Notes under the pieces: generated by a model
Database searches by the model: none
Told to the model about the DNA's origin: nothing
The model's input: the letters and a program-made list of their open reading frames with translations, nothing else
Made by a program: the position numbers and the translations under genes
NCBI GenBank assembly: GCA_024449565.1
Contig: GCA_024449565.1_4810.1
Source: a phage
Reading direction: 5' to 3' (one strand)
Length of the DNA: 64,000 nucleotides
In this document: positions 6,335-59,528 of the stretch, one piece after another
Layout of the letters: every line of letters begins with the position of its first letter
Numbering within the stretch: the first letter of the stretch is position 1

Positions 6335-6583
6335 ATGAATCAAAATGAATCAGTAGCGTTCTTACAATGGCTGGAAGGTGTTGTGGAGTATTACGCTCCA
6401 AAAGACCGTTTCATCTTTCAAGGCAAAAGTTATAAGCGCAAAGGACAGGCCCAGAAAGCTGCGCGCAAGTACTGGAAAGAAGTTTATTCAGAGTTCTTTC
6501 AGCAGATGGGCATCATCGGCTCGACCGTATCCGGCGACCCAGCACAGTTGGTATCGATTGATGAATCCAATCGTCACAATTAA
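6335..6583 (+). CDS. hypothetical protein (82 aa)
   Basis: ORF track; GAGGA RBS upstream. Confidence 0.5.
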   Translation: MNQNESVAFLQWLEGVVEYYAPKDRFIFQGKSYKRKGQAQKAARKYWKEVYSEFFQQMGIIGSTVSGDPAQLVSIDESNRHN

Positions 6584-6658
6584 TAAATCGATTTGAATGC
6601 CGCGCTATGCGGCTTTATTATAGTTATTGTTAATCACCCAAATATTGAAGGTAATGAT

Positions 6659-7039
6659 ATGTCAAATAAAAATGATTCTGTGAGTCACACATATACTAAA
6701 GGCAGCGGCATTGCTTTTGGTTCCAGCATCAAAATTGACGCTCCACCTTGCTATTCTGATGGATTGGAAGTTGGCAACCGCGACTTAACATGGGTTTTAC
6801 GTCGCCAATCCGATTTAGAAGAGAAGCTGGAAAATATTGAGCGTTCTCTTGAAAGTCTTCGCGACCAGCTTTTTGGTTGTCCTGAAGATGAGTCAAAACC
6901 TGAATCATATGCAGCCAATCGCGGTTTGATTGATAATATGCTTGCTATTACCGCTCGATCAATTGGTAAAACTGTGTCCATTGAATCATTGATCAGCCAG
7001 ATTGCGGATGGCTTTGGTGATGCCCATAAGAGCGAATAG
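6659..7039 (+). CDS. hypothetical coiled-coil protein (126 aa)
   Basis: Start moved to ATG 6659 preceded by GAAGGT; the longer track ORF starts at 6593. Confidence 0.5.
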   Translation: MSNKNDSVSHTYTKGSGIAFGSSIKIDAPPCYSDGLEVGNRDLTWVLRRQSDLEEKLENIERSLESLRDQLFGCPEDESKPESYAANRGLIDNMLAITARSIGKTVSIESLISQIADGFGDAHKSE

Positions 7040-7069
7040 TGGGTGGATGTTGCTTTAACCGTGAATCGT

Positions 7070-7096
7070 GGGTCGCTTAGTGCGGCCCTTTATTTT
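7070..7096 (+). terminator. intrinsic terminator after the 6659-7039 gene
   Basis: gggtcgc/gcggccc stem (one G-U pair), loop ttagt, then tttattttg. Confidence 0.5.
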
Positions 7097-7098
7097 GC

Positions 7099-7174
7099 CT
7101 GCCGCGCAGGAGTGTACTGCCGCGCAGGAGTGTACTGCCGCGCAGGAGTGTACTGCCGCGCAGGAGTGTACTGC
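7099..7174. repeat. tandem repeat, 18-bp unit ctgccgcgcaggagtgta x4 plus partial fifth
   Basis: Four perfect head-to-tail copies at 7099-7170 followed by ctgc; each unit is a near-palindrome. Confidence 0.9.
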
Positions 7175-7551
7175 AAATTTCCTGTGGGTACAAAATAGTA
7201 CGGTACTGTCTAGGACTTTTTCTTTGAAAAGTTAGTGGACCAAATGTGTCGTATTTTGATTAGTGTACCGCAAATTCCATCAAGTAGCAAAACGCACCAA
7301 AAGACCCATGCCCTAAAAACCACACGAACGCAATAATCAATCGCCGTTACAGTTTCCAGCGTTACAATTAGAAAGCGAATGATTCGATGCATAATAATAT
7401 GAAGCATAATGATTCGAAAGCTAATGGTTGCGCGTAGGATGATATCGGGAGGGATTATTCGAGATGCGTGTAATTTCGCATGCGTACTATTTTCGGGCGA
7501 AGGGTCGGCATATTCTTCGTTTTAGCTCGGAACGAAGGGAAAGTTTTGCGC

Positions 7552-7628
7552 CTTTATAAAACAACGACTTACGCGACCCGCCTTAACGGTCCGATATAGG
7601 TGTCTATATAAAACAAGGACTTACGCGA
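7552..7628. repeat. two 25-bp direct repeats (ctttataaaacaacgacttacgcga / ctatataaaacaaggacttacgcga)
   Basis: Copies at about 7552-7576 and 7604-7628, 2 mismatches, inside a ~570-bp non-coding stretch. Confidence 0.7.
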
Positions 7629-7750
7629 TGTTCTCCATTTAACGTAATACCTGTTATGCGAACTAAGGCGCATCTCGACGAAGATTGTGCGACGACGAAG
7701 GGAAGGATAAAGGAGTTTTCGCGTAGGAGCTCATCGAGATAGGGACGAAG

Positions 7751-7772
7751 AAAAGCCGCGACTAAGCGCGGC
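7751..7772 (-). terminator. terminator-like hairpin downstream of the 7793-8083 minus-strand gene
   Basis: gccgcg/cgcggc 6-bp stem, loop actaag; T-run on the minus strand (aaaa on plus at 7751-7754). Confidence 0.4.
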
Positions 7773-7792
7773 CTATTAGTAACGGAAGGGTA

Positions 7793-8083
7793 TTATAAGG
7801 AGACGATTTTAAAGAAAGAGTAACGGCCTTCGCCTTCGGATACCGCGATATATTCGCCGCCGAACTCCGTAGCAAAATAAACCTTGCCTTCGATAGTAAC
7901 GCGGAAGGTAGAAATATCTTCCTCTTCGAGTTCCGTAAATTCGCTAAAATCGATAGGACTATGAAGCTCCTCGATAGTCGCATCTACGTTAAAGAGATAA
8001 ACGTTTTTAAGTTTTTCGCCAAATACGTTAGAGTTTTCGGAAGTTTCGACGCGAGCGGAACGGATAGCGGCCAAAGTAATCAT
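7793..8083 (-). CDS. small acidic protein, paralog family member 1 (96 aa)
   Basis: AGGAGA RBS; CpG-rich codon usage; aligns with the 8719-9003 product (IRxAxVE, VYxxNVDxTIE, C-terminal GxxYFxAxE). Confidence 0.6.
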   Translation of the reverse strand: MITLAAIRSARVETSENSNVFGEKLKNVYLFNVDATIEELHSPIDFSEFTELEEEDISTFRVTIEGKVYFATEFGGEYIAVSEGEGRYSFFKIVSL

Positions 8084-8190
8084 AATATTCTCCTAGTTAG
8101 TCGGGAGGGTAGCGACCTATTCGCTACCTCATCCCCTCTCGATATAAAACATTATAGTCTTAGTGTACGAAGAAGTAAAGCACTTTTTCG
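8084..8190 (-). promoter_or_regulatory. upstream control region with AGTGTACGAAGAAGTAAAG element
   Basis: 19-bp element at 8162-8180 recurs at 8560-8578 (direct) and 8621-8639 (inverted, 2-3 mismatches); ctcgata(t/c)aaa also shared with the 8494-8560 region. Confidence 0.4.
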
Positions 8191-8493
8191 TTATTCTGCG
8201 ATAAAATATTTATAAGCTTTATCGCCTTCTACGTCGATATACTCGACGATAATTAACGCTTCGCCGCGCGGCGTAACCGTCTCGATAAGGGTAACGGCTT
8301 CGTCGTCGGTCTTCGCGAAGCGGATTGCGCTACGTTCGGCGTACTTAATATCATCGAAGGAAAGGCCGACGAAAGCGACCGCGCGGACCTTAATAATGGT
8401 AGATTCTAGTTCCGCGTTAACGGCAGCGATAAGAGAGCGAACGGTTAAACGGTCTTCGTCGTAAGTAAGGATAGAAGAGATTAAAGTAGTCAT
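8191..8493 (-). CDS. small acidic protein, possible distant paralog (100 aa)
   Basis: Start moved to ATG at 8493 with GGAG RBS (MTTLISSIL...); the longer track ORF ends at 8550. Confidence 0.55.
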   Translation of the reverse strand: MTTLISSILTYDEDRLTVRSLIAAVNAELESTIIKVRAVAFVGLSFDDIKYAERSAIRFAKTDDEAVTLIETVTPRGEALIIVEYIDVEGDKAYKYFIAE

Positions 8494-8718
8494 AATAAAA
8501 CTCCCGATGCTAGTAGAAGGAAGGGCCATCACCCGTCTCGATACAAACAAGTATACGCGAGTGTACGAAGAAGTAAAGAAAAAAGATAAAATAATTTATC
8601 TCATTTTTATCGAAAAAGTGCTTTACTTTTTTCTACACTATATTATAATGTACTCATATCGGGACGGGATGAGTTAACGAATAGGTCGTTAACGCCCGTC
8701 GAGAACTAGGAGTTTAAA
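8494..8718. promoter_or_regulatory. divergent intergenic control region
   Basis: Lies between divergent starts 8493 (minus) and 8719 (plus); contains inverted pair of the AGTGTAC...GTAAAG element and a tattataat -10-like box. Confidence 0.45.
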
Positions 8719-9003
8719 ATGGCTATTCTTAACGTTTCTTCCATCCGTAACGCTATCGTCGAGAACTACGGCGTAAAACAAATTTTATCCGAAGTTTACG
8801 CCGCGAACGTAGACCAAACTATCGAGGCGGGTGGGGTAACGGTCGCCGAGGCTTTTAAACTTTACGCGGCGCTACCGGAATCGGACCGCGAAGCCTTCGA
8901 AGTAAACGTTAACGGATACTTCTTCGAAGCGGTCGAAATCGGTAACATCTTACTCGTTATGGGCGAAGAAGAATTTGATACCTTCTCCCTCGTCGAAGCG
9001 TAA
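8719..9003 (+). CDS. small acidic protein, paralog family member 2 (94 aa)
   Basis: AGGAG RBS; CpG-rich codon usage; homologous to the 7793-8083 product. Confidence 0.6.
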   Translation: MAILNVSSIRNAIVENYGVKQILSEVYAANVDQTIEAGGVTVAEAFKLYAALPESDREAFEVNVNGYFFEAVEIGNILLVMGEEEFDTFSLVEA

Positions 9004-9083
9004 GAGAGGATTTTTAGAGCGTCGTGCGCGGCGCTTTAATAAAATTCTTTCGCGCCTAGCGCCCTAACAAATAGGAGTTCATT

Positions 9084-9710
9084 ATGGTTAGCTTAAATCG
9101 TTTCTCGACTAGCGGCGACGTTATCGCAACTAAGACCGCCGACCTCGTTGCATTTTATAATGCAAATTCAGGTTCGAAGCCGATTAAAAAATTTGCGGAC
9201 CGCCGGACCGCCGAGACTCGCGTAATCGCGCTAATCGAGTCCTTAAACGCGCTCGATGAGCCGTCCAACGAATCGCCAATCCCCGACGCGAAGCCGCGCG
9301 AGGAAGTGTCCAGCGATGTAAAAACGCATAAGGCGCGTGCGGTCGTTAAAAAGGCAGAGCCGACGCAGGAAGAACTCGACGCGATGAGCGATGAAGAGTA
9401 TGAAGCCTTCGTTAAGAGCGGCTTAAACGATAGTGCAAATTGCGTAGTGCAAAATGGAACTCCTTCCCATCGCCGTTCGAATAGCGAAGGTATTGCAAAA
9501 AGTTGGGACAATAAGGAAGTGGCGCAAAAGCGTCTCACCCGTAACGGCGTTATGGTCGAGGGTGTAGGAGAGTTCAAATCGGTCCGCGCAGCTTTCGCCG
9601 CGCTGGGATTACCGGATAGCAAGCACATTCGCTTCCGTATGAAGCTTAAGGAAGCTGGGCGCTTGAACTTCGAGTTCGGCAACAAGTCCTTTACCTTCCA
9701 GATTATCTAA
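9084..9710 (+). CDS. hypothetical protein (208 aa)
   Basis: AGGAG RBS; CpG-rich codon usage; two internal copies of the TAGTGCAAA(T/A) motif. Confidence 0.6.
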   Translation: MVSLNRFSTSGDVIATKTADLVAFYNANSGSKPIKKFADRRTAETRVIALIESLNALDEPSNESPIPDAKPREEVSSDVKTHKARAVVKKAEPTQEELDAMSDEEYEAFVKSGLNDSANCVVQNGTPSHRRSNSEGIAKSWDNKEVAQKRLTRNGVMVEGVGEFKSVRAAFAALGLPDSKHIRFRMKLKEAGRLNFEFGNKSFTFQII

Positions 9711-49985: not shown

Positions 49986-50858
49986 TTATGCCGATGGTGC
50001 AACGCCGCCCGTCACCGTAAATATATCATCACGACTCGCTAAATCATATTCAAGTTGCATGATGACAAATGTGGTGTCGTTCAAGCTTGGGTTTAAGACT
50101 GATTTGAATTTAACACCTTGTGCAAGCTTCAAATCTGCGTTATACATACAAGTGAAGTCTGCACCCCACTCGTTCCACATCGGTATTCCGACAAATTCCT
50201 CAATGACTGTAATCTGGTCTGGATTTAGAATTTTGTCTTTATCCTTAACAATTAACGTATCGTCATCAATGTATGCCGCGATTGAGTTGCGTTGATAGTT
50301 CTGGATCTCAAGCAGCAGCGCAGCAGCAACATATGTTGTTCTTCCTGGGTTCACAAGTCGCTGATTGTTAATCGACGTGTCACAAATAACAGTATCGATG
50401 CCCATTTGTTTTGCAGACCATTCCACAAACTCTTTGAAAGTCGGGTTGGATGGCGCGGCTTGAGTTATGAACTTCGTTCTGTTTATTTGGTTGGTGTAAC
50501 AAGTGATTCTGATGACAATATTCGGCGGCGGTGCTGTGATCTCAACTGTCGTCACCTGTCCCTTGTATACCAAGTTGCTGCTGATTACGCTCCCTTCTCT
50601 GTATCCAGCTTCAATAGTCACGTTAACATAGTTCGCCGCCAACTGACCTTGATCACGCAGACGTTTGTTGAATGCCGTGAAGTTGGAAAGCAGGTACTCT
50701 CTCAAGTACCCTGTCAATCCTGCGACTTCAATCGTGGCCTTATTCTGAACGGAAAGTGCTGCCTTTTTGATTCGGCATCTAAGCATCAATCCTTCATCAA
50801 GCACTTGGCTTGTGCCATCCGGCATAGATAAGGTGACTTTAAGGATTCTCTTTTTCAA
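49986..50858 (-). CDS. tail/baseplate hub-like protein, tentative (290 aa)
   Basis: Immediately downstream of the tape measure gene. Context only. Confidence 0.4.
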   Translation of the reverse strand: MKKRILKVTLSMPDGTSQVLDEGLMLRCRIKKAALSVQNKATIEVAGLTGYLREYLLSNFTAFNKRLRDQGQLAANYVNVTIEAGYREGSVISSNLVYKGQVTTVEITAPPPNIVIRITCYTNQINRTKFITQAAPSNPTFKEFVEWSAKQMGIDTVICDTSINNQRLVNPGRTTYVAAALLLEIQNYQRNSIAAYIDDDTLIVKDKDKILNPDQITVIEEFVGIPMWNEWGADFTCMYNADLKLAQGVKFKSVLNPSLNDTTFVIMQLEYDLASRDDIFTVTGGVAPSA

Positions 50859-50862
50859 ATTA

Positions 50863-53043
50863 TCACCACTTCAAAGGTGTAGCAGTAAGGTTGTTTATGT
50901 CATTGATATCATCTTGTTCAAGCACTCGTTTCGTTTCGAATGCCGTGCTGCGTGGGTCTTGAGCGCCGTTGACGTTGATGACAACGTTTTTCTGACCCAT
51001 AGTAATATCACGCCCACCAGGTCGACTATTCGCGGAAAGGTCGCCGCCGTATTTCTGGAATGCCTCAAGTTGGAATGCAGCAAGACGAGCATTCTTCATC
51101 GCTTCGGCTTGAATGTTCGGTCTTACACCTGGAGTTGAAGCCAGTTGCATGTTTTTAATATAATCCCTTTGCGTTCCAAGTTTAAGGTAAGTTTGAGCAA
51201 AGTCAATATCGCCTTTGTTAACTTGCCCTTGCATCAACTGCTCAACTGGCACGTTTAGGTATCCTGCAACGGCTTCTTGCAACTGTCTGTATTGCACCGT
51301 TTGGCGGGATTGGCCTTGTACTGGTGCATAACGGCCCTTTGGTGCTTCCGCTCCGCTACCGCTAAGTACTGGAGTAACTGGTGCACCTTGCGGCGCTCCT
51401 GTGGCGTATTCTCCATTCGCCTGTCGGTCGAGAGCGGCCATTACCTTGCCAGGGTATGCACGGGTGTTCTTTCCCCATCCGCTTCGGTCATATCCACCGT
51501 GATACATAGTCAGCGCAAGATTCCAATCGCCATTGGCAGCTGTTAAATATTCCTTGAGAAGTTGAGCGCCGCCCATAATGTTTTGTCTTGGGTCGTTACC
51601 GTCTGTGATACCAAGTCCCTTGAAGTTGGAAGGCATTATTTGCATCAATCCGGTCGCGCCTGCTCCGCTCACAGCGTTAGGGTTGAATCCAGATTCGACT
51701 TCTGTGACGGCCTTCATCATCGCAACAGGGATTCCATAACGCTTGGAAGCTTCCTCATAGATTGAGTCATATGCAGTCGGATTTCCTGACCCCAAGTTGT
51801 TGCCTACGGTCGCACCAGTGCTTAGTGCTGGTGTGCCAGGCATTGCGGATTGGCCTGCGCTTCGTCCTATCTCACCAGCCCATGCAGCCCACGCTTGTCG
51901 CTCATCAATAACACCAGCAAAGGTTGAAACGGCGCTTGAAAACAGGTTGATGTCGCGAGTGAAAAGTGCTTGCGCAGAGCGTTGTTCAGCCGCGTTTTGC
52001 TCCTGGTTCCTCTGGCGCTTCACATCGCCGTCAGCCATCTGAGTTATCCATCTATCAACGGCACGCTCGTGACGCTCGTTAACAGCCGCCTGTTTATCGA
52101 ACGGGTGTTTCAAATCAGCGATGAAATTGTCGACAAATTCAGACCATCCATCAGACATCCTTTGGAACATCATCTGGAATCCTTCGACTGTATCGGCAGT
52201 CTTGCTGACAAGCGTCGAGAATGCTGGCATCACGTTCTCGCCGATTACCAGTTCAATGCGTCGCCAGTCTTCTTGAATTTGGCCCATGCTGTTTCGTATC
52301 GTTTCAAGCGCAGCCTGCTGTCTTTGCAGCTTCGCCGTTTCTTCGTCGCTTATACGGGTGCTTTCTTTGACTGATTGATTTCGCTCACGAAGCGCACGGA
52401 CTTCATCGGCGGTAAAACCTGCCAGAGCACCAATAGCACGAGCGGTTTGCTCATTCACACTTCTCAGCTTTGTGCCAATTTCATCAAGCAGCTGGTTTGT
52501 GTCTTTGATGCCGCCGTTACTGTTGAAAGGACTGGTCCCCATCTTGTTCAGCAGCAAGTTATCCTTGTTCATCACATCTGGGTTGGTGTATGCGTTGAAT
52601 GCGAGATTAGAAGCCTTGCTGATTAAATCCCTTGACCCTTGCGCACCAAGAACTCCGCCTGAACTTTCATTCAATTGTCGCTGTAATTGCTCTACGCCAA
52701 TTGGTGAAAGACCTGCTTCAAATCCAAGCTTCCTTTGCGCTTCGTATTCTTTTCGAACATCAACGATAGATTTGACTACGACAGCCAATCCTGCGACAAC
52801 AGGGACGAGCGCGGCAAAGCGATAAGTAAGCCGCGCAAGGATTCCGTCAATAGACCCCAGTTCAGCTGTGAGAGGCTTCAACTCACCAAACACATCCTTG
52901 AATGCTCCAGTGAAGTCTTTGCCAGCGGACTTTGCCTTTTTGTTTGTCTGATCAACCTTATCTTGCAATTGCTCAAGACGATTGATGGACTCTTTCAAGT
53001 CCACCGTATATTGAAGAACAAATTTTTCTAATGAGTCAGACAC
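50863..53043 (-). CDS. tail tape measure protein with lytic transglycosylase (SLT) domain
   Basis: 726 aa; N-terminal coiled-coil-like region; SLT signature VTEVESGFNPNAVSGAGATGLMQIMP; position between tail and baseplate genes. Confidence 0.7.
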   Translation of the reverse strand: MSDSLEKFVLQYTVDLKESINRLEQLQDKVDQTNKKAKSAGKDFTGAFKDVFGELKPLTAELGSIDGILARLTYRFAALVPVVAGLAVVVKSIVDVRKEYEAQRKLGFEAGLSPIGVEQLQRQLNESSGGVLGAQGSRDLISKASNLAFNAYTNPDVMNKDNLLLNKMGTSPFNSNGGIKDTNQLLDEIGTKLRSVNEQTARAIGALAGFTADEVRALRERNQSVKESTRISDEETAKLQRQQAALETIRNSMGQIQEDWRRIELVIGENVMPAFSTLVSKTADTVEGFQMMFQRMSDGWSEFVDNFIADLKHPFDKQAAVNERHERAVDRWITQMADGDVKRQRNQEQNAAEQRSAQALFTRDINLFSSAVSTFAGVIDERQAWAAWAGEIGRSAGQSAMPGTPALSTGATVGNNLGSGNPTAYDSIYEEASKRYGIPVAMMKAVTEVESGFNPNAVSGAGATGLMQIMPSNFKGLGITDGNDPRQNIMGGAQLLKEYLTAANGDWNLALTMYHGGYDRSGWGKNTRAYPGKVMAALDRQANGEYATGAPQGAPVTPVLSGSGAEAPKGRYAPVQGQSRQTVQYRQLQEAVAGYLNVPVEQLMQGQVNKGDIDFAQTYLKLGTQRDYIKNMQLASTPGVRPNIQAEAMKNARLAAFQLEAFQKYGGDLSANSRPGGRDITMGQKNVVINVNGAQDPRSTAFETKRVLEQDDINDINNLTATPLKW

Positions 53044-53046
53044 AGT

Positions 53047-53463
53047 TTACCCCTTGTTTGGAGTCTCGCCGCTGAGGAATGGCGCGATTAATCGCATCGA
53101 TTCGCCAATAAATGCTGCAGCCATTTCGCCGCCAACCTGTTCCCAGTATCCTTCACGTTCAGCGTGAGTCTCTGGGTTGATTCCGTTTTCCATCAACACC
53201 GCTTCGAAAACCAATTTTAAGTTTTCCCAGTCGCCAAGATGGTTGTCAATAAGTGCGCCAGTGCTCAGAGGAATTTCTTGCCCGACATCAAGTTCAACCT
53301 TCGCAAAGCTTAATACTTCCATTGTGTATTCTGAACGAAAGGCGGGGTCTTTTGACATCGCAAATTCGATGAATCGGCGCTGTATGTTCCAACCTTCCAT
53401 CGCAGTCATTTTGCTGATTTTAATTTCTACTTTGCGACCAGTTTGTTTATTGGTGATCTTCAT
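53047..53463 (-). CDS. tail assembly chaperone-like protein, tentative (138 aa)
   Basis: Directly upstream of tape measure gene. Context only. Confidence 0.35.
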   Translation of the reverse strand: MKITNKQTGRKVEIKISKMTAMEGWNIQRRFIEFAMSKDPAFRSEYTMEVLSFAKVELDVGQEIPLSTGALIDNHLGDWENLKLVFEAVLMENGINPETHAEREGYWEQVGGEMAAAFIGESMRLIAPFLSGETPNKG

Positions 53464-53464
53464 T

Positions 53465-54025
53465 TTATATTCCTACTGTTGATTTTATTTTATTATATAA
53501 CGAACTCACAGTTGTAGTCAAACTGACTGGCTCTTTAATAGCCACGCCATTTGACGATTCATCTGCGGACTGTTTAGGGTCAAAGCTTCCTTGAATACTA
53601 AATGACGTCTGTTCAAATGTTATTACAATTGAGACTCCATTCAGGTTTTCTTCTGACTGAGTTATTTCGACATCAGACATCGACATTTTGCTTGCAATTA
53701 TGCTTCGAGAAGTTATTGAAAATGTAACTTCATCATTGTCGAATGTATTAATTATGTTTTCAATAGTCGATTGGTCATTGCAAATTACGTTTAGCGCCAT
53801 GTGCGCTGGCATTATTACTTTTGCCGCCTGTAGATTGCTTACTGAGGATATGCTTGATACTTCCACCACCTGCATTGCCGTTCCAGCAAGTGGAAATTGA
53901 GTGGTTTCTGCTGGTGATGTTATTTCTGCAGATACTGGAGAAAGCTTTGTCCATACAGGAATCCCTGTTGACTCATTCGTTATGGTCAAAGATTGACCAG
54001 AGAGCAGAATCGAAACAAAGTCCAT
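53465..54025 (-). CDS. hypothetical tail-module protein (186 aa)
   Basis: ORF track. Confidence 0.5.
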   Translation of the reverse strand: MDFVSILLSGQSLTITNESTGIPVWTKLSPVSAEITSPAETTQFPLAGTAMQVVEVSSISSVSNLQAAKVIMPAHMALNVICNDQSTIENIINTFDNDEVTFSITSRSIIASKMSMSDVEITQSEENLNGVSIVITFEQTSFSIQGSFDPKQSADESSNGVAIKEPVSLTTTVSSLYNKIKSTVGI

Positions 54026-54558
54026 CAGAACATCCCCTTGATGCCATTCATCACCTTTGTTGCAACGCCAGTGACGCTGGCAGTGGTTTCTTTTATATAA
54101 GCTATGCCGCGCTCGATGACAGTTGAGTCGGCTGCTTGCGCTGTTTGAATAGACACATCCTGCTGTGTTAATATTTCGTGGAATACCAGTTGTATGGGTT
54201 GTGAAGTTATATTGTCAGCATCTTGGCTGAAATTGTTATTTTGCAGCACCATACGTTCAAATATTAGCCCACGAGAATTTATTGTGTATATCGTGGACCT
54301 GTTTTGCAACATCTTTGCGATTGCGTCGGACGCGCTTTTTGTCTGTGCTATTACAGTCACAGTCAATATTCTAGGCATTTTGACTCTGCCATCGACGATA
54401 TAGCTTCCGTCTTCCCTTTGGTTTTTGAATATCTTTGCTTGGAGTCTTATTTTAACGTTAACAATCGCCCAACCAAGCGTTGACACTTCCCCAAGGTTGA
54501 AGCTTCTTATTGTGAAGCTTCTGTTGGAAAGACTATATGACAATAAATCGATAGCCAT
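54025..54558 (-). CDS. hypothetical tail-module protein (177 aa)
   Basis: ORF track; start overlaps upstream stop. Confidence 0.5.
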   Translation of the reverse strand: MAIDLLSYSLSNRSFTIRSFNLGEVSTLGWAIVNVKIRLQAKIFKNQREDGSYIVDGRVKMPRILTVTVIAQTKSASDAIAKMLQNRSTIYTINSRGLIFERMVLQNNNFSQDADNITSQPIQLVFHEILTQQDVSIQTAQAADSTVIERGIAYIKETTASVTGVATKVMNGIKGMF

Positions 54559-55055
54559 TAAATTGACCCCAATATGCTCTGCACCACGCCTTTTGCAATT
54601 TGCGATGTGCTCTGTGCGCCGCCGTAGCTGGCAAACACGAATGTGTATCTGTTTGTCTTACGACGACCGGACTGCTCAATGGAGTCGCCAAGCGGACCGC
54701 TGATGATGGTCCCGTTCGAAAACGCCACTCTGCCGCCATCAGGATATGTAATAAGCATTGATGTGACATCCTGGATAGGAAGCCACTTGAATCCGCCTTT
54801 ACGAGCGGAAAGCAAAAGCTTTAGGTTTATGTCGTCTTCAGTGTTTGGGATCACTGCAATGGATACGCGAACGACGGCGGCCTTGTCATAAATACAAATG
54901 CCGCCGTCATAAGTAAGTTGATAGCCTACTGATTCAACTTCCTCAATAATTAGCGAATCCTGGTCATCAGACAAAGAACTGATATTCAGCCCAACAGGAA
55001 AAGATTGGAGAGCGACAATTCTAATGCTTGTGCCAAATCCACTAATATTGACCAT
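54558..55055 (-). CDS. tail tube-like protein, paralog of 56006-56473 product (165 aa)
   Basis: N-terminus MVNISGFGTSIRIVALQSFPVG versus MINVSGFGASIRLVASNTFPNG; similarity continues along the protein. Confidence 0.5.
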   Translation of the reverse strand: MVNISGFGTSIRIVALQSFPVGLNISSLSDDQDSLIIEEVESVGYQLTYDGGICIYDKAAVVRVSIAVIPNTEDDINLKLLLSARKGGFKWLPIQDVTSMLITYPDGGRVAFSNGTIISGPLGDSIEQSGRRKTNRYTFVFASYGGAQSTSQIAKGVVQSILGSI

Positions 55056-55057
55056 GT

Positions 55058-55324
55058 TTACTCCGCAGATGCAGATTTAACTGCTGCAAGAATTTCATCC
55101 TTATAAGAAAGACCTTTGATGTCAATCTCATGTTCCTTTGCATAAGCCTTCAATTCAGAGACGCTCATTGAATCAAAATCAACTTTCGATTCTACTGCCT
55201 TCTCTTCAACCTGTTCTTTCTTCTCCGCAACAGGGTTTGAAGTCTTTTTGAATAATTCCGATGCGTCTTCAAATTTTTCTCCAAATTTCATGACGCCATT
55301 AGCAAAATGAATTACTTGTGCCAT
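55058..55324 (-). CDS. hypothetical protein (88 aa)
   Basis: ORF track. Confidence 0.5.
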   Translation of the reverse strand: MAQVIHFANGVMKFGEKFEDASELFKKTSNPVAEKKEQVEEKAVESKVDFDSMSVSELKAYAKEHEIDIKGLSYKDEILAAVKSASAE

Positions 55325-55680
55325 TATTGATTACTCACCTTTATACGTTCGCCATAAATAGTCACCACTTCAGCGGTGAATCCAAGAATACCGTTTTGGA
55401 TGGTGACAGTCAATGAGTCGATTCCGGCAACGTCTGCTTTCTTCAGAATAGCATCTGCAATCGACTTTCTCGCACCGTCTTCATCAACGGGCGATTTGAA
55501 AACAGTGCCCAAATAATCGACTCCGTTTTCAACATCGTACAAGTCTTCACCAAGTCGCATTTGATGCGCCGCCTTGATAACTTGTACCATGGCCTTTTCT
55601 CCTGACAGAATATTCAAATTTCTTCCATCAGGCAGAAACAGGTCATTGTTATCATTAACTTCAATCGTTAGAGTTGTCAA
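55324..55680 (-). CDS. hypothetical protein (118 aa)
   Basis: ORF track. Confidence 0.5.
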   Translation of the reverse strand: MTTLTIEVNDNNDLFLPDGRNLNILSGEKAMVQVIKAAHQMRLGEDLYDVENGVDYLGTVFKSPVDEDGARKSIADAILKKADVAGIDSLTVTIQNGILGFTAEVVTIYGERIKVSNQ

Positions 55681-56006
55681 ATTGCAAACTCCGCTTCAGC
55701 AGTTTTCTGGAATTCAGCCAACTCAGATTCTGACATGTAATATAAATTACAGCCGCCAGAGTTAAAATGCTCATAATCGGGTACGCTGTCAAAAATAAAG
55801 TTGCCGTACCCAATCATGAGATATTTATAAGGCACCATTGGTATACCACCAAAACAACGTACCCCCTGAATCAACAATTCGCCATTGCGGTAAACATCTG
55901 CGCACATGTGCTCAATTGCGGCGAATATGTGCAGCTGCCAATAAGCACCGTCAACGTTAAAGCTGATATTCTGGTTAGGTACACTGTCAAGTGGTATTTG
56001 ATACAT
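55677..56006 (-). CDS. hypothetical protein (109 aa)
   Basis: ORF track; 4-bp overlap. Confidence 0.5.
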   Translation of the reverse strand: MYQIPLDSVPNQNISFNVDGAYWQLHIFAAIEHMCADVYRNGELLIQGVRCFGGIPMVPYKYLMIGYGNFIFDSVPDYEHFNSGGCNLYYMSESELAEFQKTAEAEFAI

Positions 56007-56473
56007 TATAAAATCTCTTGGTTGCTCACGCCAGTTTTGACTACGTTCTCAAACTTAAAGCGATATTGACGTGTTTTTACACGACCCTGAGACTGGATGC
56101 CAGGAATCACTGAACCAGTCGTCAAAGTTCCCTTGTTCAGTGTGATGACCATGCCAGAAGGGTAGGTCAGAATAAGGGTGATCACGTCTTTCGCAGAGTT
56201 CTTGCGCTTGCCTACACGGTTAGCCGCTGCCAGAACATCTAAGTTTACATCGCTTTCAGAAGTAGGGATGATGTTGACGCCTACTTCAAGAGGGTTGGCA
56301 CGGTTCCAGACTACCAAGTCACCGTTCAATCCCATTGCCGCTTCAGAGATTTGAAGATCAGGCGCGTCAATCGGATCAGCATCATCTGCGAAATCAGAAA
56401 GAGTTACACCATTTGGAAAAGTGTTTGATGCCACTAAACGAATCGAAGCGCCAAAACCGGAAACGTTAATCAT
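56006..56473 (-). CDS. putative tail tube protein (155 aa)
   Basis: Directly downstream of the putative sheath gene; paralog of 54558-55055. Confidence 0.5.
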   Translation of the reverse strand: MINVSGFGASIRLVASNTFPNGVTLSDFADDADPIDAPDLQISEAAMGLNGDLVVWNRANPLEVGVNIIPTSESDVNLDVLAAANRVGKRKNSAKDVITLILTYPSGMVITLNKGTLTTGSVIPGIQSQGRVKTRQYRFKFENVVKTGVSNQEIL

Positions 56474-56520
56474 TACAGATTCCTCTCAGAGAGATGGCCG
56501 CCAGTTACGGCGGCAATTAT

Positions 56521-58059
56521 TTAGATAAGAACGTCACGACCTTCAACGCGACGCACAGCATCATCTTTAGAGTAGATTAGCGTGTATGTTGCATAGTATT
56601 CGGTGCGCCCATCGGAGGTGGTTTCAGTATCAAAGTCTACAGTCAGCCAGTAACCGATAGTTTCAACCTGCCGCCAAGCAGTGTTGTCACCGGAAGTTTG
56701 CGTGATGTATTGTTTCTGAATCTCAGTCAGCGCCTTGCCAACAGAGATGGTGCCGTTAACCTTTGCATTGTCAACAGCAACTTGAATCATGGCTTGTACA
56801 GTCGCTTTACCTTCTTCGTTTGCAGGCACGCGACCAAGATTCAAGAACATGCTGAACAGCTGAGAAGTGATAGCAGATTTAAGCCACATCTCGTTGGCAT
56901 AAGTATTCATGTCAACTGCTGCGGTAGACCCGCCCATCAATACGCCGCGCTGGAAGAATGCCAAGGTTTGTCCGGCCTGCTGAGTTGCACCGATGTAGTT
57001 AGCACGGTTTTGATCAGCAGTATCTGCGCGAGAGTCAGTTGAAACAGTCACATTGCGAGTATCAAACTGATAATACATGTAGTTTTGAGTTGCATTCACA
57101 GTATTATAGTTTGTTGCCGCGAGGATTTCAGCAGGTGCTTGGTCGATGTAATCGTTTGCAAGGTTAGTTGCACGAATCATCATGCCAACGCCTGAGTACC
57201 CTTTCAGAGCGGTATAGTATGACCCGATATTAGCGAACGAAGTCGAGAATAAATACATGTACATATTATTCTGCGAATGAGTCCACGCTGCCACAGCGGT
57301 AATCTCTTCCAGAGTTCGGTCTGCTCCAGCGAAAAGGAATGAGCCGAAGTTGTTGGAGATTTCCACAGATGCTGCGATTGCTTCTACCGGACTTGAAACG
57401 CCCTGGCCTGCAACGGTTACGGTGCCAGTGGTGGTCCAACCCAATGCTTGAGACGGGTCTGTCGGTTGGCCTGTGACGTTGATAGACAGATTGCCTGCAC
57501 CAGCAGTCGACGGCGCTGCTTCCAGCGTGAACTGCTGAGTATTAGCGTTCCAATACACTTCTGCATCAGCAAGTGCAGGCACCGACGTACCGCCTTCTGC
57601 TGCAAATTTAGTATTGATTGCCGTTTCCAGAAGTTCAGCCACATTCGCCAGACTTGTTGCCGCTGAAAGGTTAATTGCGTCAGTCAGGTAGTCTGTGCCA
57701 TCATAAGTAATGCTTAAGATAGCGCCAGTGAATGCTTGAAAAGTAGCAAGCACTTTAGGCTCAGTATCACCGATTACCATTGCTGGAATCGCAGTTGAAA
57801 CAATTCGCGAGAAGCTGATTGAATCAGGCGAGTTAATTTGCTTGCTGATGAATCCAAAATATGATGCTGCGCGCTTATATTCTTCGGAAGAATAACCGAA
57901 ATATGATCCAACAGCATCAGCCGTTGAAAATTCTGCTACAATGCCTGGCGGCAGAACTGTATTAGAAGTCATGACGCGAAGCGACAGTTTGCGAACTGCA
58001 ACAGCCGCGCCTGCTCCGACCCCTGATACAATTTTAATATAACGAGATTGACTGATCAC
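56521..58059 (-). CDS. putative tail sheath protein (512 aa)
   Basis: Large Ala/Thr/Ser-rich protein immediately upstream of tube-like gene. Inferred from gene order and size. Confidence 0.45.
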   Translation of the reverse strand: MISQSRYIKIVSGVGAGAAVAVRKLSLRVMTSNTVLPPGIVAEFSTADAVGSYFGYSSEEYKRAASYFGFISKQINSPDSISFSRIVSTAIPAMVIGDTEPKVLATFQAFTGAILSITYDGTDYLTDAINLSAATSLANVAELLETAINTKFAAEGGTSVPALADAEVYWNANTQQFTLEAAPSTAGAGNLSINVTGQPTDPSQALGWTTTGTVTVAGQGVSSPVEAIAASVEISNNFGSFLFAGADRTLEEITAVAAWTHSQNNMYMYLFSTSFANIGSYYTALKGYSGVGMMIRATNLANDYIDQAPAEILAATNYNTVNATQNYMYYQFDTRNVTVSTDSRADTADQNRANYIGATQQAGQTLAFFQRGVLMGGSTAAVDMNTYANEMWLKSAITSQLFSMFLNLGRVPANEEGKATVQAMIQVAVDNAKVNGTISVGKALTEIQKQYITQTSGDNTAWRQVETIGYWLTVDFDTETTSDGRTEYYATYTLIYSKDDAVRRVEGRDVLI

Positions 58060-58071
58060 GTCGGTGTCCTC

Positions 58072-58557
58072 TTATTTAATGACTTGGCTGCTGACAGATT
58101 GCCACATGAGGCTAGTGTGAATCAAAGGCTTGTCGAATCCCTTCACACGTACAGTATATCTGGCGTTTGGTTGCCACGGTCCGTTTTTAATTGATTCGAC
58201 AATCTTTGCTTCCATCGCAAGCCCAATTTGACCCAATGCCTGTCTAGCGTCTATTTTACCGGAAAAAATCTTTTTAGCAATTTTATTCTCTATTTCACTG
58301 CGCTCACTAACGAATAATTCATAGGCATATCTCATGAATGGTCTGGGTGGCACTTCTACCCTGACTGGGCCTTGTCCAAAGTTCAAAACGGCTATGTGAC
58401 CAAACTCGTTAAGCCGCGCGACTTCTGACACCAGTATGCCTTCTCCACCAGTTTCTGAAGGGTATCTGGTAGAATCAAACCATCCTGCCTCAACAGTAAG
58501 ACCCTTCATAGATTGAAGTGCCTTAATCTGTTTTTCTATCATTTTTGATTTTGTCAT
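58072..58557 (-). CDS. hypothetical head-tail joining region protein (161 aa)
   Basis: Start moved to internal ATG (MTKSKMIEKQ...); the longer track ORF overlaps the upstream gene. Confidence 0.45.
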   Translation of the reverse strand: MTKSKMIEKQIKALQSMKGLTVEAGWFDSTRYPSETGGEGILVSEVARLNEFGHIAVLNFGQGPVRVEVPPRPFMRYAYELFVSERSEIENKIAKKIFSGKIDARQALGQIGLAMEAKIVESIKNGPWQPNARYTVRVKGFDKPLIHTSLMWQSVSSQVIK

Positions 58558-58558
58558 A

Positions 58559-59140
58559 TTACACCGGAACGTCACCCAAATCATTATTAACAGCTCTTGC
58601 CACTGCAGGAGTATCAATTGAAATTGCGTTTCTGTGAAGTATTACCAAATCAAAAGAAGGGAATGATTCAAACTGCGACATGTCATCATAAAACTTTTCA
58701 TTATTATTCATGTCGATTCGATATACTGATGCTTGATGCTTTTTGAACCAATCTCTCAGATTGGCTTTATGAGTTATGAATCTTGCTAAATAAGTCAAAA
58801 CATCATTAGCTGTAGGCTTTTCTGGATTGCCAGGGACTTCTGGAAATAAGCCGCTAATTTGAAAACGTGTTGCGTATATTTGATCTTCAATATCTTTAAA
58901 TTTGCCATTGACGAATTGAGATTCATCATTGACAAATTCATTCTTTCTCATCGACCAACCGAATGGAACTGAGAATAAAAGGTTAAACCAAATCTGATCA
59001 CCAGTCGGAATGCCCTGTTGAGTCGGTTGATACTTTTTCTGGACCGGAACAGCAGAAAGGTCTGCACGACTATACGCCGCCAGACCTTCTTCAATTCGCG
59101 TCGCCAGCATGTCAATCAGGTCGACATCTGTCATATACAC
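58559..59140 (-). CDS. hypothetical virion-module protein (193 aa)
   Basis: ORF track. Confidence 0.5.
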   Translation of the reverse strand: MYMTDVDLIDMLATRIEEGLAAYSRADLSAVPVQKKYQPTQQGIPTGDQIWFNLLFSVPFGWSMRKNEFVNDESQFVNGKFKDIEDQIYATRFQISGLFPEVPGNPEKPTANDVLTYLARFITHKANLRDWFKKHQASVYRIDMNNNEKFYDDMSQFESFPSFDLVILHRNAISIDTPAVARAVNNDLGDVPV

Positions 59141-59141
59141 C

Positions 59142-59528
59142 TCAAGTAGACACTGGAAAGCTTTGTTTTACTTCCACGGCAAGGCAAGACGTCCAACCAT
59201 CTTGGTCAAACCATGTCGTTTCATCTTCCATCTTGTACGTTTTGCCACCAAACACAAAATAGTCGCCGGAAGCGTCGCGGTCAAGGTCAACAATGTCTTT
59301 GTCCACCCAGATTTTGACATAGTTCTTTTGAAGCTCTAATCCAAGCTCAACGTATTGGTTTCGAAGAACAGCCTGCACCGAAGCAAGTAGGGTGATTGGT
59401 TCTTCATATGTAGTGACATAGTTGCGCATCTTATCAAGGGTGCGCCCCTTGTACATGTAATATTGAATCGGTTGGCGACCGATGACCTTTGTCGCAACTC
59501 GATATAAGTTTACGCCAGGAATCCTCAC
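59142..59528 (-). CDS. hypothetical virion-module protein (128 aa)
   Basis: ORF track. Confidence 0.5.
   Translation of the reverse strand: MRIPGVNLYRVATKVIGRQPIQYYMYKGRTLDKMRNYVTTYEEPITLLASVQAVLRNQYVELGLELQKNYVKIWVDKDIVDLDRDASGDYFVFGGKTYKMEDETTWFDQDGWTSCLAVEVKQSFPVST

Follow-up and report, generated by a model that had tools for sequence, protein, structure and literature searches.

The window, the whole stretch of 64,000 nucleotides of phage DNA that was analyzed, belongs to a Wifcevirus, a myophage of E. coli/Shigella, with about 98% DNA identity to vB_EcoM_WFH and CWP003. Its tail module, encoded on the minus strand, contains two genes of similar length. Gene A (56006-56473) encodes a tail tube protein of 155 amino acids beginning with MINVSGFGASIRLVASNTFPNG, and gene B (54558-55055) encodes a baseplate tube protein, or "tail tube-B", of 165 amino acids beginning with MVNISGFGTSIRIVALQSFPVG. 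As an earlier note on this DNA had described, one copy, A, lies next to the sheath gene (56521-58059), and three small ORFs (55677-56006, 55324-55680 and 55058-55324) separate A from B. A starts 47 nt downstream of the sheath gene. Plausible ribosome-binding sites precede both start codons, with GAGG 8 nt ahead of the ATG in A and GGAG 5 nt ahead of that in B, the ORF of which is intact. The stretch between A and B was searched for an internal promoter or terminator, with a negative result: the promoter-like count was 12 against a shuffle expectation of 10.1, and since it does not exceed this expectation, separate transcription finds no support.

The order of the genes in this module equals that of the Pbunavirus phages E217 and Pa193 and was also found in four other genera. 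Apart from the tape measure, all named genes match their respective chains in E217/Pa193, and all features that follow lie on the minus strand. The gateway protein (58559-59140; PF22756 E217_gp29, E = 1.6e-38) is the ortholog of E217 gp29 and an analog of lambda-gpU-like terminators; it caps the tube on the side of the head and keeps the last ring of the sheath in place, and it was likened to lambda gpU by the E217 authors (PMC10329688). For a tail completion gene, the ORF at 58072-58617 gave no match in the PDB sequence search. The tail sheath of 512 amino acids (56521-58059) is the ortholog of E217 gp31 and Pa193 gp32, as seen from matches to 8fvg_A (E = 4.9e-167), to 9b42_S (E = 8.6e-167, full length) and to DUF3383 (E = 5.5e-120). 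Between A and B lie a helical-bundle baseplate adaptor of 109 amino acids (55677-56006; E217 gp33/Pa193 gp34; 9b45_A, E = 7.1e-26; 8env_G, E = 1.4e-25; Pam3_gp18, E = 4.8e-16) and a sheath initiator of 118 amino acids (55324-55680; E217 gp34/Pa193 gp35), residues 1-111 of which align with residues 1-111 of chain 9b45_G, "gp35 Sheath initiator" (E = 4.6e-23). The TTG start of the latter overlaps the upstream stop codon (TTGA) and has a GGAG 8 nt upstream. The third small ORF (55058-55324, 88 amino acids) occupies the position of E217 gp35 and matches phrog_10541 (E = 1.1e-28). Its C-terminus is SAP/Rho_N-like, the matches to SAP, DUF6887 and Rho_N all falling below the curated Pfam thresholds. 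It showed no homology to its positional counterpart in Pbunavirus E215 (E = 0.23); E217 gp35 itself is not mentioned in the description of the E217 virion (PMC10329688) and is absent from the solved virion models.

Downstream from B are the genes for ripcord-1 (54025-54558; E217 gp37/Pa193 gp38; 9b45_S, E = 5.3e-20; 8eon_A, E = 1.5e-19; PF22760, E = 1e-10) and ripcord-2 (53465-54025; E217 gp38/Pa193 gp39; 9b45_V, E = 1.8e-26; 8eon_D, E = 2.2e-26; PF22760, E = 1.2e-71), the second being a distant paralog of the first (23% identity, E = 2e-5). The next gene (53047-53463), which immediately precedes that of the tape measure, has a product of 138 amino acids with no Pfam match; it belongs to phrog_4627, of unknown function (E = 1.1e-64). 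The same position is also occupied by a gene in Kyle, E215, Pluto and MATE2, and position, the one criterion used here, suggests a tail assembly chaperone. The tape measure protein (50863-53043) was assigned from its position and from a lytic transglycosylase (SLT) domain at residues 430-529 (E = 3.3e-24); relatives annotate it as "lytic tail protein" or "transglycosylase". The trimeric baseplate/tail hub, which has tube-fold domains, follows at 49986-50858 (E217 gp41/Pa193 gp42; 8eon_E, E = 9.4e-87; PF22759, E = 6.5e-119).

Comparison of A with B by BLASTP gave a gapless alignment covering residues 1-143 of both proteins, with 47 identities in 143 positions (33%), 61% positives and E = 2e-32. 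The paralogy that the earlier note had proposed from a common N-terminus and a similar length is thus upheld, as the likeness is not confined to the first ~20 residues and reaches residue 143. Searching the whole window with A or B by tblastn recovered its partner (E = 6e-28 and 6e-24), with no further match below E = 0.05; because just the partner gene is returned, exactly two copies are detectable by sequence in the window. Likewise, no sequence link of A or B to the ripcord or hub proteins was found below E = 0.03; the tube fold common to all of these proteins is known from the E217 structure (PMC10329688). A Pfam scan with a cut-off of E <= 0.1 returned a single family for both A and B, PF22764 (E217_Gp32), which groups tube-fold proteins of Pbunavirus-like myophages and has a curated gathering threshold of 27 bits. 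A scored 202.5 bits (E = 2.8e-60, profile positions 1-143 of 144) and B 180.4 bits (E = 1.9e-53, positions 2-143 of 144). AlphaFold2 models made without an alignment were unusable (mean pLDDT of 31.0 for A and 32.0 for B); the fold is settled because orthologs with solved structures match at E ~1e-50.

These orthologs also tell the two copies apart. In the PDB sequence search, A matched the tail tube chains best (9b42_M, "gp33 Tail tube", E = 1.9e-48 over residues 1-150; 8fuv_T, E = 5.8e-42) and the baseplate-tube chains more weakly, at ~1e-25 (3.4e-25 for Pa193 gp37). Conversely, B matched the baseplate-tube chains best (9b45_M, "gp37 Baseplate tube", E = 1.1e-52 over residues 1-162; 8env_I, E = 2.2e-49) and the tail-tube chains more weakly (1.4e-21 for Pa193 gp33 and 3.2e-16). 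Judged by these matches, A is the ortholog of the tail tube protein E217 gp32/Pa193 gp33, and B is the ortholog of E217 gp36 ("tail tube-B")/Pa193 gp37 ("baseplate tube"). The claim that one contractile-tail module contains two tube-fold paralogs accordingly stands, the products of both matching PF22764 and solved orthologs. The gene neighborhood agrees: A lies directly downstream of the sheath gene, likewise in five other genera, and B lies downstream of the sheath initiator and directly upstream of the ripcord-1/ripcord-2 pair, in an order shared without change by WFH, Kyle, E215, Pluto and MATE2.

The correspondence with the two Pbunavirus phages is close. In E217 (PDB 8FUV, 8ENV, 8EON) both proteins fall in the same Pfam family and each window protein best matches its counterpart; the gene order from gateway to hub is common to the window, with gp31, gp33, gp34, gp37, gp38 and gp41 all matched. 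Pa193 (PDB 9B42, 9B45) supplies the best PDB matches for both A and B, and for its roles "Tail tube", "Baseplate tube", "Ripcord-1/2", "Sheath initiator" and "helical bundle" there are one-to-one counterparts among the window genes. The differences concern the host (P. aeruginosa for Pbunavirus, E. coli/Shigella for the window phage), the protein identity of A and B to their Pbunavirus orthologs (~52-53%, with E215 as proxy), the gene that separates sheath initiator and B (88 amino acids here and 143 in Pbunavirus, the two being unrelated) and the tape measure. The latter is 726 amino acids long in the window and 858 in Pa193, which makes a shorter tail probable.

A tree and alignment of 12 sequences from 7 phages, comprising five two-copy genomes and two single-copy tubes, placed A in the tube clade and B in the B clade. 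A single clade, with a bootstrap value of at least 91, unites the B proteins from Wifcevirus, Kylevirus, Pbunavirus, Luteibacter phage Pluto and Xylella phage MATE2 (Carpasinavirus). Identity is 48-59% among these B proteins, from five genera with different hosts, 42-72% among the five tube proteins of the two-copy genomes, and 26-39% between tube and B proteins, the two single-copy tubes included. The family was found in 384 phage records at 745 places, from which it follows that ~361 records (94%) carry two copies. By these sequence comparisons the duplication of A and B is old, since the two clades are separate across five genera and ~94% of the genomes with the family have both copies. The pair is therefore not "unusual", as the earlier note had called one form of it. 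Small single-copy relatives exist, such as BcepB1A.

Taken together, we consider A and B to be anciently diverged paralogs with separate jobs in one contractile tail (probability about 0.94). The jobs themselves are seen in the two relatives. In Pa193, the tube consists of 34 stacked hexamers of gp33 alone (204 copies), and the "baseplate tube" gp37 has an RMSD of 4.2 Å to the tube protein (PMC11456595). In E217, gp36 ("tail tube-B"; RMSD 3.6 Å to gp32) forms a hexameric ring to which three gp37/gp38 heterodimers attach (PMC10329688). We infer the copy numbers and contacts of A and B in the window phage by transfer from these ~52-53% identical orthologs. A would thus polymerize as stacked hexameric rings within the sheath, and scaling by tape-measure length from the 34 rings of Pa193 suggests ~29 tube rings here. 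B would form a single hexameric ring at the distal end of the tube and on the same axis. The upper face of this ring would lead on into the first ring of the tube and its lower face would be the platform for three ripcord-1/ripcord-2 heterodimers, which would step the 6-fold symmetry down to the 3-fold symmetry of the trimeric hub and tail tip. Lying between tube and ripcords, B would be part of the "cap" with which the baseplate closes the tube. What the papers on E217 and Pa193 give is an architecture rather than an assembly pathway (PMC10329688, PMC11456595); from this architecture, B is most likely the template where tube polymerization starts, in the manner of a tube initiator. Among the options that the earlier note had offered for the pair, tube plus tube-initiator is the one borne out, A corresponding to the tail tube and B to a protein that forms a single ring at the baseplate end in its orthologs.

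The same fold family (PF22764), the similar length and the full-length similarity of A and B would also suit a tube of two components, in which both proteins co-polymerize, alternating or in blocks, over the whole tail length. However, the tubes of E217 and Pa193 are homopolymers of the A ortholog, and the B ortholog is present as one ring of six. Moreover, A and B sit in separate conserved orthologous clades, and B has a clade-specific C-terminal tail and is grouped in gene order with the baseplate cap genes. The "unusual two-component tube" of the earlier note is excluded by homology, the 34 rings of Pa193 being built from one protein, and we regard it as very improbable here. Its other suggestion, a tail terminator, would make B the tube cap at the head-proximal end; terminators are indeed small proteins whose hexameric rings stack onto the tube, but cryo-EM places the B orthologs at the opposite, baseplate end. 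The head-proximal ring is the gateway, whose ortholog was found at 58559-59140 (PF22756, E = 1.6e-38), and neither A nor B matches gateway/terminator families in the Pfam scan (E <= 0.1). Homology thus assigns the terminator role to the gateway gene and makes such a role for B extremely unlikely.

Tandem gene duplicates occur in phage structural modules, and B could in principle be such a copy of the tube gene, recent, redundant or in decay, and lack a role of its own. Against this, A and B are just 33% identical, B orthologs have kept 48-59% identity across five genera, both copies are retained in ~94% of the genomes with the family, and the B ORF is intact with a good Shine-Dalgarno sequence. 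We give this explanation next to no weight; a recent redundant duplicate is refuted by the clade structure of A and B.

A division of labor between a tube and related ring proteins is found in other contractile systems. In phage T4, gp19 is the tube, and gp48 and gp54 are tube-fold baseplate proteins that start it. The likeness lies in the use of tube-fold paralogs as first rings between hub and tube; T4 differs in having two different initiator rings and a far more complex baseplate. In the antifeeding prophage (Afp) and extracellular contractile injection systems, with Afp1 as the tube, a hexameric tube-fold "tube initiator", Afp7, bridges the tube and the 3-fold needle/hub (PMC6851490). Afp7 differs from B in its extra C-terminal domain and in its direct contact with the pseudo-hexameric Afp8. 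In phages of the window type, unlike in Afp, the step from 6-fold to 3-fold symmetry falls to a separate ripcord-1/ripcord-2 heterohexamer. In the Pfam scan (E <= 0.1), B matched PF22764 only and no family of the T4 gp48/gp54 or Afp7 type, so that its resemblance to these proteins would be functional and architectural only.

One feature of B sets its clade apart. Past the tube core, the B proteins carry a C-terminal extension of ~20 amino acids, present in window B, in which the alignment revealed the motif GAQ[ST]..Q....[IV].[SA][IL].G in 5 of 5 B proteins and 0 of 7 tube proteins. The matched deposited chains of E217 and Pa193 end near residue 151-152 of 167, hence this tail is absent from those models. 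The E217 text gives residues 1-167, although the deposited chain ends earlier. It is a doubtful but conceivable idea that the B tail is an undescribed assembly switch and that the tube-B and ripcord block was inserted in an ancestor. Such a tail could reach the sheath initiator on the outside or the tape measure on the inside, and could restrict B to one ring and license the polymerization of A. In the ancestor of the Pbuna/Wifce/Kyle lineage, with genomes of 60-73 kb, the block might have come to lie between tube gene and chaperone gene, where it would replace the tube starter of small single-copy relatives such as BcepB1A.

The arrangement of tube and baseplate tube is already known. The Pbunavirus cryo-EM structure has previously served to annotate structural genes of Wifcevirus (bioRxiv 10.1101/2024.09.12.612763), and the pair is available at near-atomic resolution in two close relatives, so the scientific weight of finding it here is small. 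Nevertheless, the tube, the baseplate tube and both ripcords are labeled "tail fiber protein" in RefSeq and in PHROG 2420 and 2580, and the title of PF22764 itself reads "Tail fiber protein gp32". This label is wrong for these genes. It could mislead the engineering of host range or receptor-binding proteins in therapeutically relevant phages, and the practical value of the present assignment lies in annotation hygiene.

Genes A and B, read in the earlier note as a paralogous tail-tube-like pair, are open reading frames on the minus strand at 56006-56473 (155 aa) and 54558-55055 (165 aa), each with the N-terminus quoted there and with a Shine-Dalgarno sequence at normal spacing. The two proteins are indeed paralogues. 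In a gap-free BLASTP alignment, the two share 33% identity and 61% similarity across residues 1-143 (E = 2e-32); the similarity is thus full-length and far beyond chance, rather than restricted to the first ~20 residues. No third copy was found in the window, as tblastn with A and with B matched the other copy only. AlphaFold2, run on A and B as single sequences, gave models with a pLDDT of ~31-32, which were discarded.

Both proteins match the Pfam family PF22764 (E217_Gp32), A at 2.8e-60 and B at 1.9e-53, and they differ in their best match among solved structures. A is orthologous to the tail tube of the Pseudomonas phages E217 and Pa193: it matched Pa193 gp33 ("Tail tube", 9B42) at 1.9e-48 and E217 gp32 (8FUV) at 5.8e-42, versus only about 4e-25 for baseplate-tube chains. 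B is orthologous to the baseplate tube of these phages, with Pa193 gp37 ("Baseplate tube", 9B45) at 1.1e-52 and E217 gp36 (8ENV/8EON) at 2.2e-49, versus only 1.4e-21 and 3.2e-16 for the tube chains.

In E217, gp36 ("tail tube-B") has an RMSD of 3.6 Å to the tube protein gp32 and assembles as a hexameric ring on the same axis as the tube. Three gp37/gp38 heterodimers attach on its surface and reduce the symmetry to match the trimeric hub gp41 and the tip gp43; together, these proteins form the baseplate "cap", which seals the channel and, once the tail has contracted, remains at the tip of the tube (PMC10329688). The same arrangement was described in Pa193, where an RMSD of 4.2 Å separates the baseplate tube gp37 from the tube; gp33 hexamers in 34 stacks, or 204 copies, make up the tube proper (PMC11456595). 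Among the options proposed for the duplicated fold, a tube plus an initiator-like protein is supported by the match of A to the solved tail tube and of B to the solved baseplate tube. B as a tail terminator is ruled out as far as homology can do so: the head-proximal ring of E217 is made of the gateway protein gp29, likened by the authors to the lambda terminator gpU (PMC10329688), and the gp29 orthologue in the window is a separate gene (58559-59140), distinct from B. An unusual two-component tube is excluded to the same extent, since the orthologues of B lie in the baseplate and the Pa193 tube proper contains gp33 only.

As a tail tube and a baseplate tube, A would build the repeating tube and B a single ring bridging the tube and the ripcord ring, roles carried over from homologues that are about 52-53% identical. 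The architecture further suggests that B may be the template where A polymerisation starts. T4 gp48/gp54 are analogues for such a template of tube polymerisation. The tube initiator Afp7 offers another (PMC6851490). Scaling by the tape measure, which has 726 aa in the window versus 858 aa in Pa193, would give about 29 rings for the tube, with A and B in a ratio of ~30:1.

Neighbouring genes that have a solved counterpart in E217/Pa193 all map to it, in unchanged gene order. On the minus strand, the collar (59142-59528) and gateway (58559-59140) genes are followed by the 512-aa sheath gene (56521-58059, 4.9e-167) and, 47 nt downstream, by A, the copy that had been placed next to the sheath gene. 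The three small genes noticed between A and B encode a helical-bundle adaptor of 109 aa (55677-56006, 7e-26), a sheath initiator of 118 aa (55324-55680, 4.6e-23) and an 88-aa product without solved counterpart (55058-55324). Downstream from B lie, on the same strand, ripcord-1 (54025-54558, 5e-20), ripcord-2 (53465-54025, 1.8e-26), a 138-aa gene without solved counterpart (53047-53463), the tape measure gene with an SLT domain (50863-53043) and the hub gene (49986-50858, 9.4e-87). The ripcord proteins form a second paralogous pair in the tail module (both PF22760, 23% mutual identity, E = 2e-5); their counterparts in E217 and Pa193 assemble into a heterohexamer turning 6-fold into 3-fold symmetry (PMC10329688, PMC11456595).

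Several features of the module were observed alongside. Between the gateway and sheath genes, the mechanically called 181-aa ORF 58072-58617(-) has a TTG start and a 59-nt overlap with the gateway gene. The PHROG family that it matches ("tail completion or Neck1 protein") aligns from residue 22 onward. Together with an ATG at 58557 (MTKSK...) directly after the gateway stop, this makes 58072-58557 the probable extent of the real gene. A sequence search found no PDB homologue of the product, and the equivalent in the RefSeq annotation of Wifcevirus WFH has only 243 nt. The sheath-tube spacer contains a perfect 6-bp G+C hairpin (56497-56514, GCCGCC-n6-GGCGGC; folding z-score only -2.1), which might act in mRNA stability or attenuation and thereby set the ratio of sheath to tube expression. 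The sheath-initiator gene opens with a TTG that overlaps the TGA preceding it (TTGA), and GGAG lies 8 nt upstream of this start. Because its 118-aa product aligns with Pa193 gp35 from residue 1, the WFH RefSeq version (NC_048194, 8325-8591; only 267 nt, 88 aa) looks truncated by 30 residues at the N-terminus. The 88-aa ORF product ends in a SAP/Rho_N-like helix-extended-helix, with Pfam matches below threshold only; it shows no similarity to the 143-aa product in the same slot (that of E217 gp35) of Pbunavirus E215, and neither is seen in solved virions.

B-type proteins also carry a conserved C-terminal tail of about 20 residues that is missing from the tube clade (columns about 158-180 of the A-type and B-type alignment). 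In the window it is encoded at 54558-54623 (22 aa, YGGAQSTSQIAKGVVQSILGSI). The matched E217 and Pa193 chains end near residue 151-152 of 167, so these models lack the tail; the Pa193 paper describes outward-extending C-termini bound by the sheath initiator (PMC11456595).

RefSeq and many GenBank records give the label "tail fiber protein" to four products in a row, namely the tube, the baseplate tube, ripcord-1 and ripcord-2 (53465-54558, 54558-55055 and 56006-56473 in the window; 6466-9474 in NC_048194). None of the four is a fibre; the label originates from PHROG 2420, PHROG 2580 and the Pfam title "Tail fiber protein gp32". The arrangement itself is already known, since the two cryo-EM papers describe the tube and baseplate-tube pair and the BASEL collection paper annotated Wifcevirus structural genes from the Pbunavirus structure (bioRxiv 10.1101/2024.09.12.612763).

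The 5.1-kb segment around A and B shares 97.5-98.6% identity with its fifteen best matches among phage records, including Shigella phage CWP003 and Escherichia phages vB_EcoM_WFH, FEC19 and ECML-117. Identity is 80% or more for all 29 Escherichia and Shigella phage records that matched; they belong to the genus Wifcevirus (genomes of 66-72 kb). The pair is conserved well beyond this genus. A tblastn search of 50,697 phage records with A matched 745 places in 384 records, so about 361 genomes (94%) carry two copies, with hosts such as Pseudomonas, Escherichia, Pantoea, Serratia, Xanthomonas, Xylella and Luteibacter. We aligned A-type and B-type proteins of Wifcevirus, Kylevirus, Pbunavirus E215, Luteibacter phage Pluto and Xylella phage MATE2 with the lone tube proteins of BcepB1A and Bordetella IFTN6. 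Tube-clade proteins shared 42-72% identity with each other, B-clade proteins 48-59%, and the two groups 26-39%; the B proteins group in a single well-supported clade, with diagnostic substitutions including YDGG for GLNGD and F.FGS for RFRFEN. The duplication is thus older than the split of these genera. The 40-47 kb myophages BcepB1A, Bordetella IFTN6 and Vibrio phiV039C have just one tube gene of the PF22764 type; in the two with annotation (BcepB1A and IFTN6), chaperone and tape measure genes come directly after it and there is no tube-B or ripcord block. The tube-B and ripcord block thus looks like an insertion specific to the lineage of 60-73 kb genomes.
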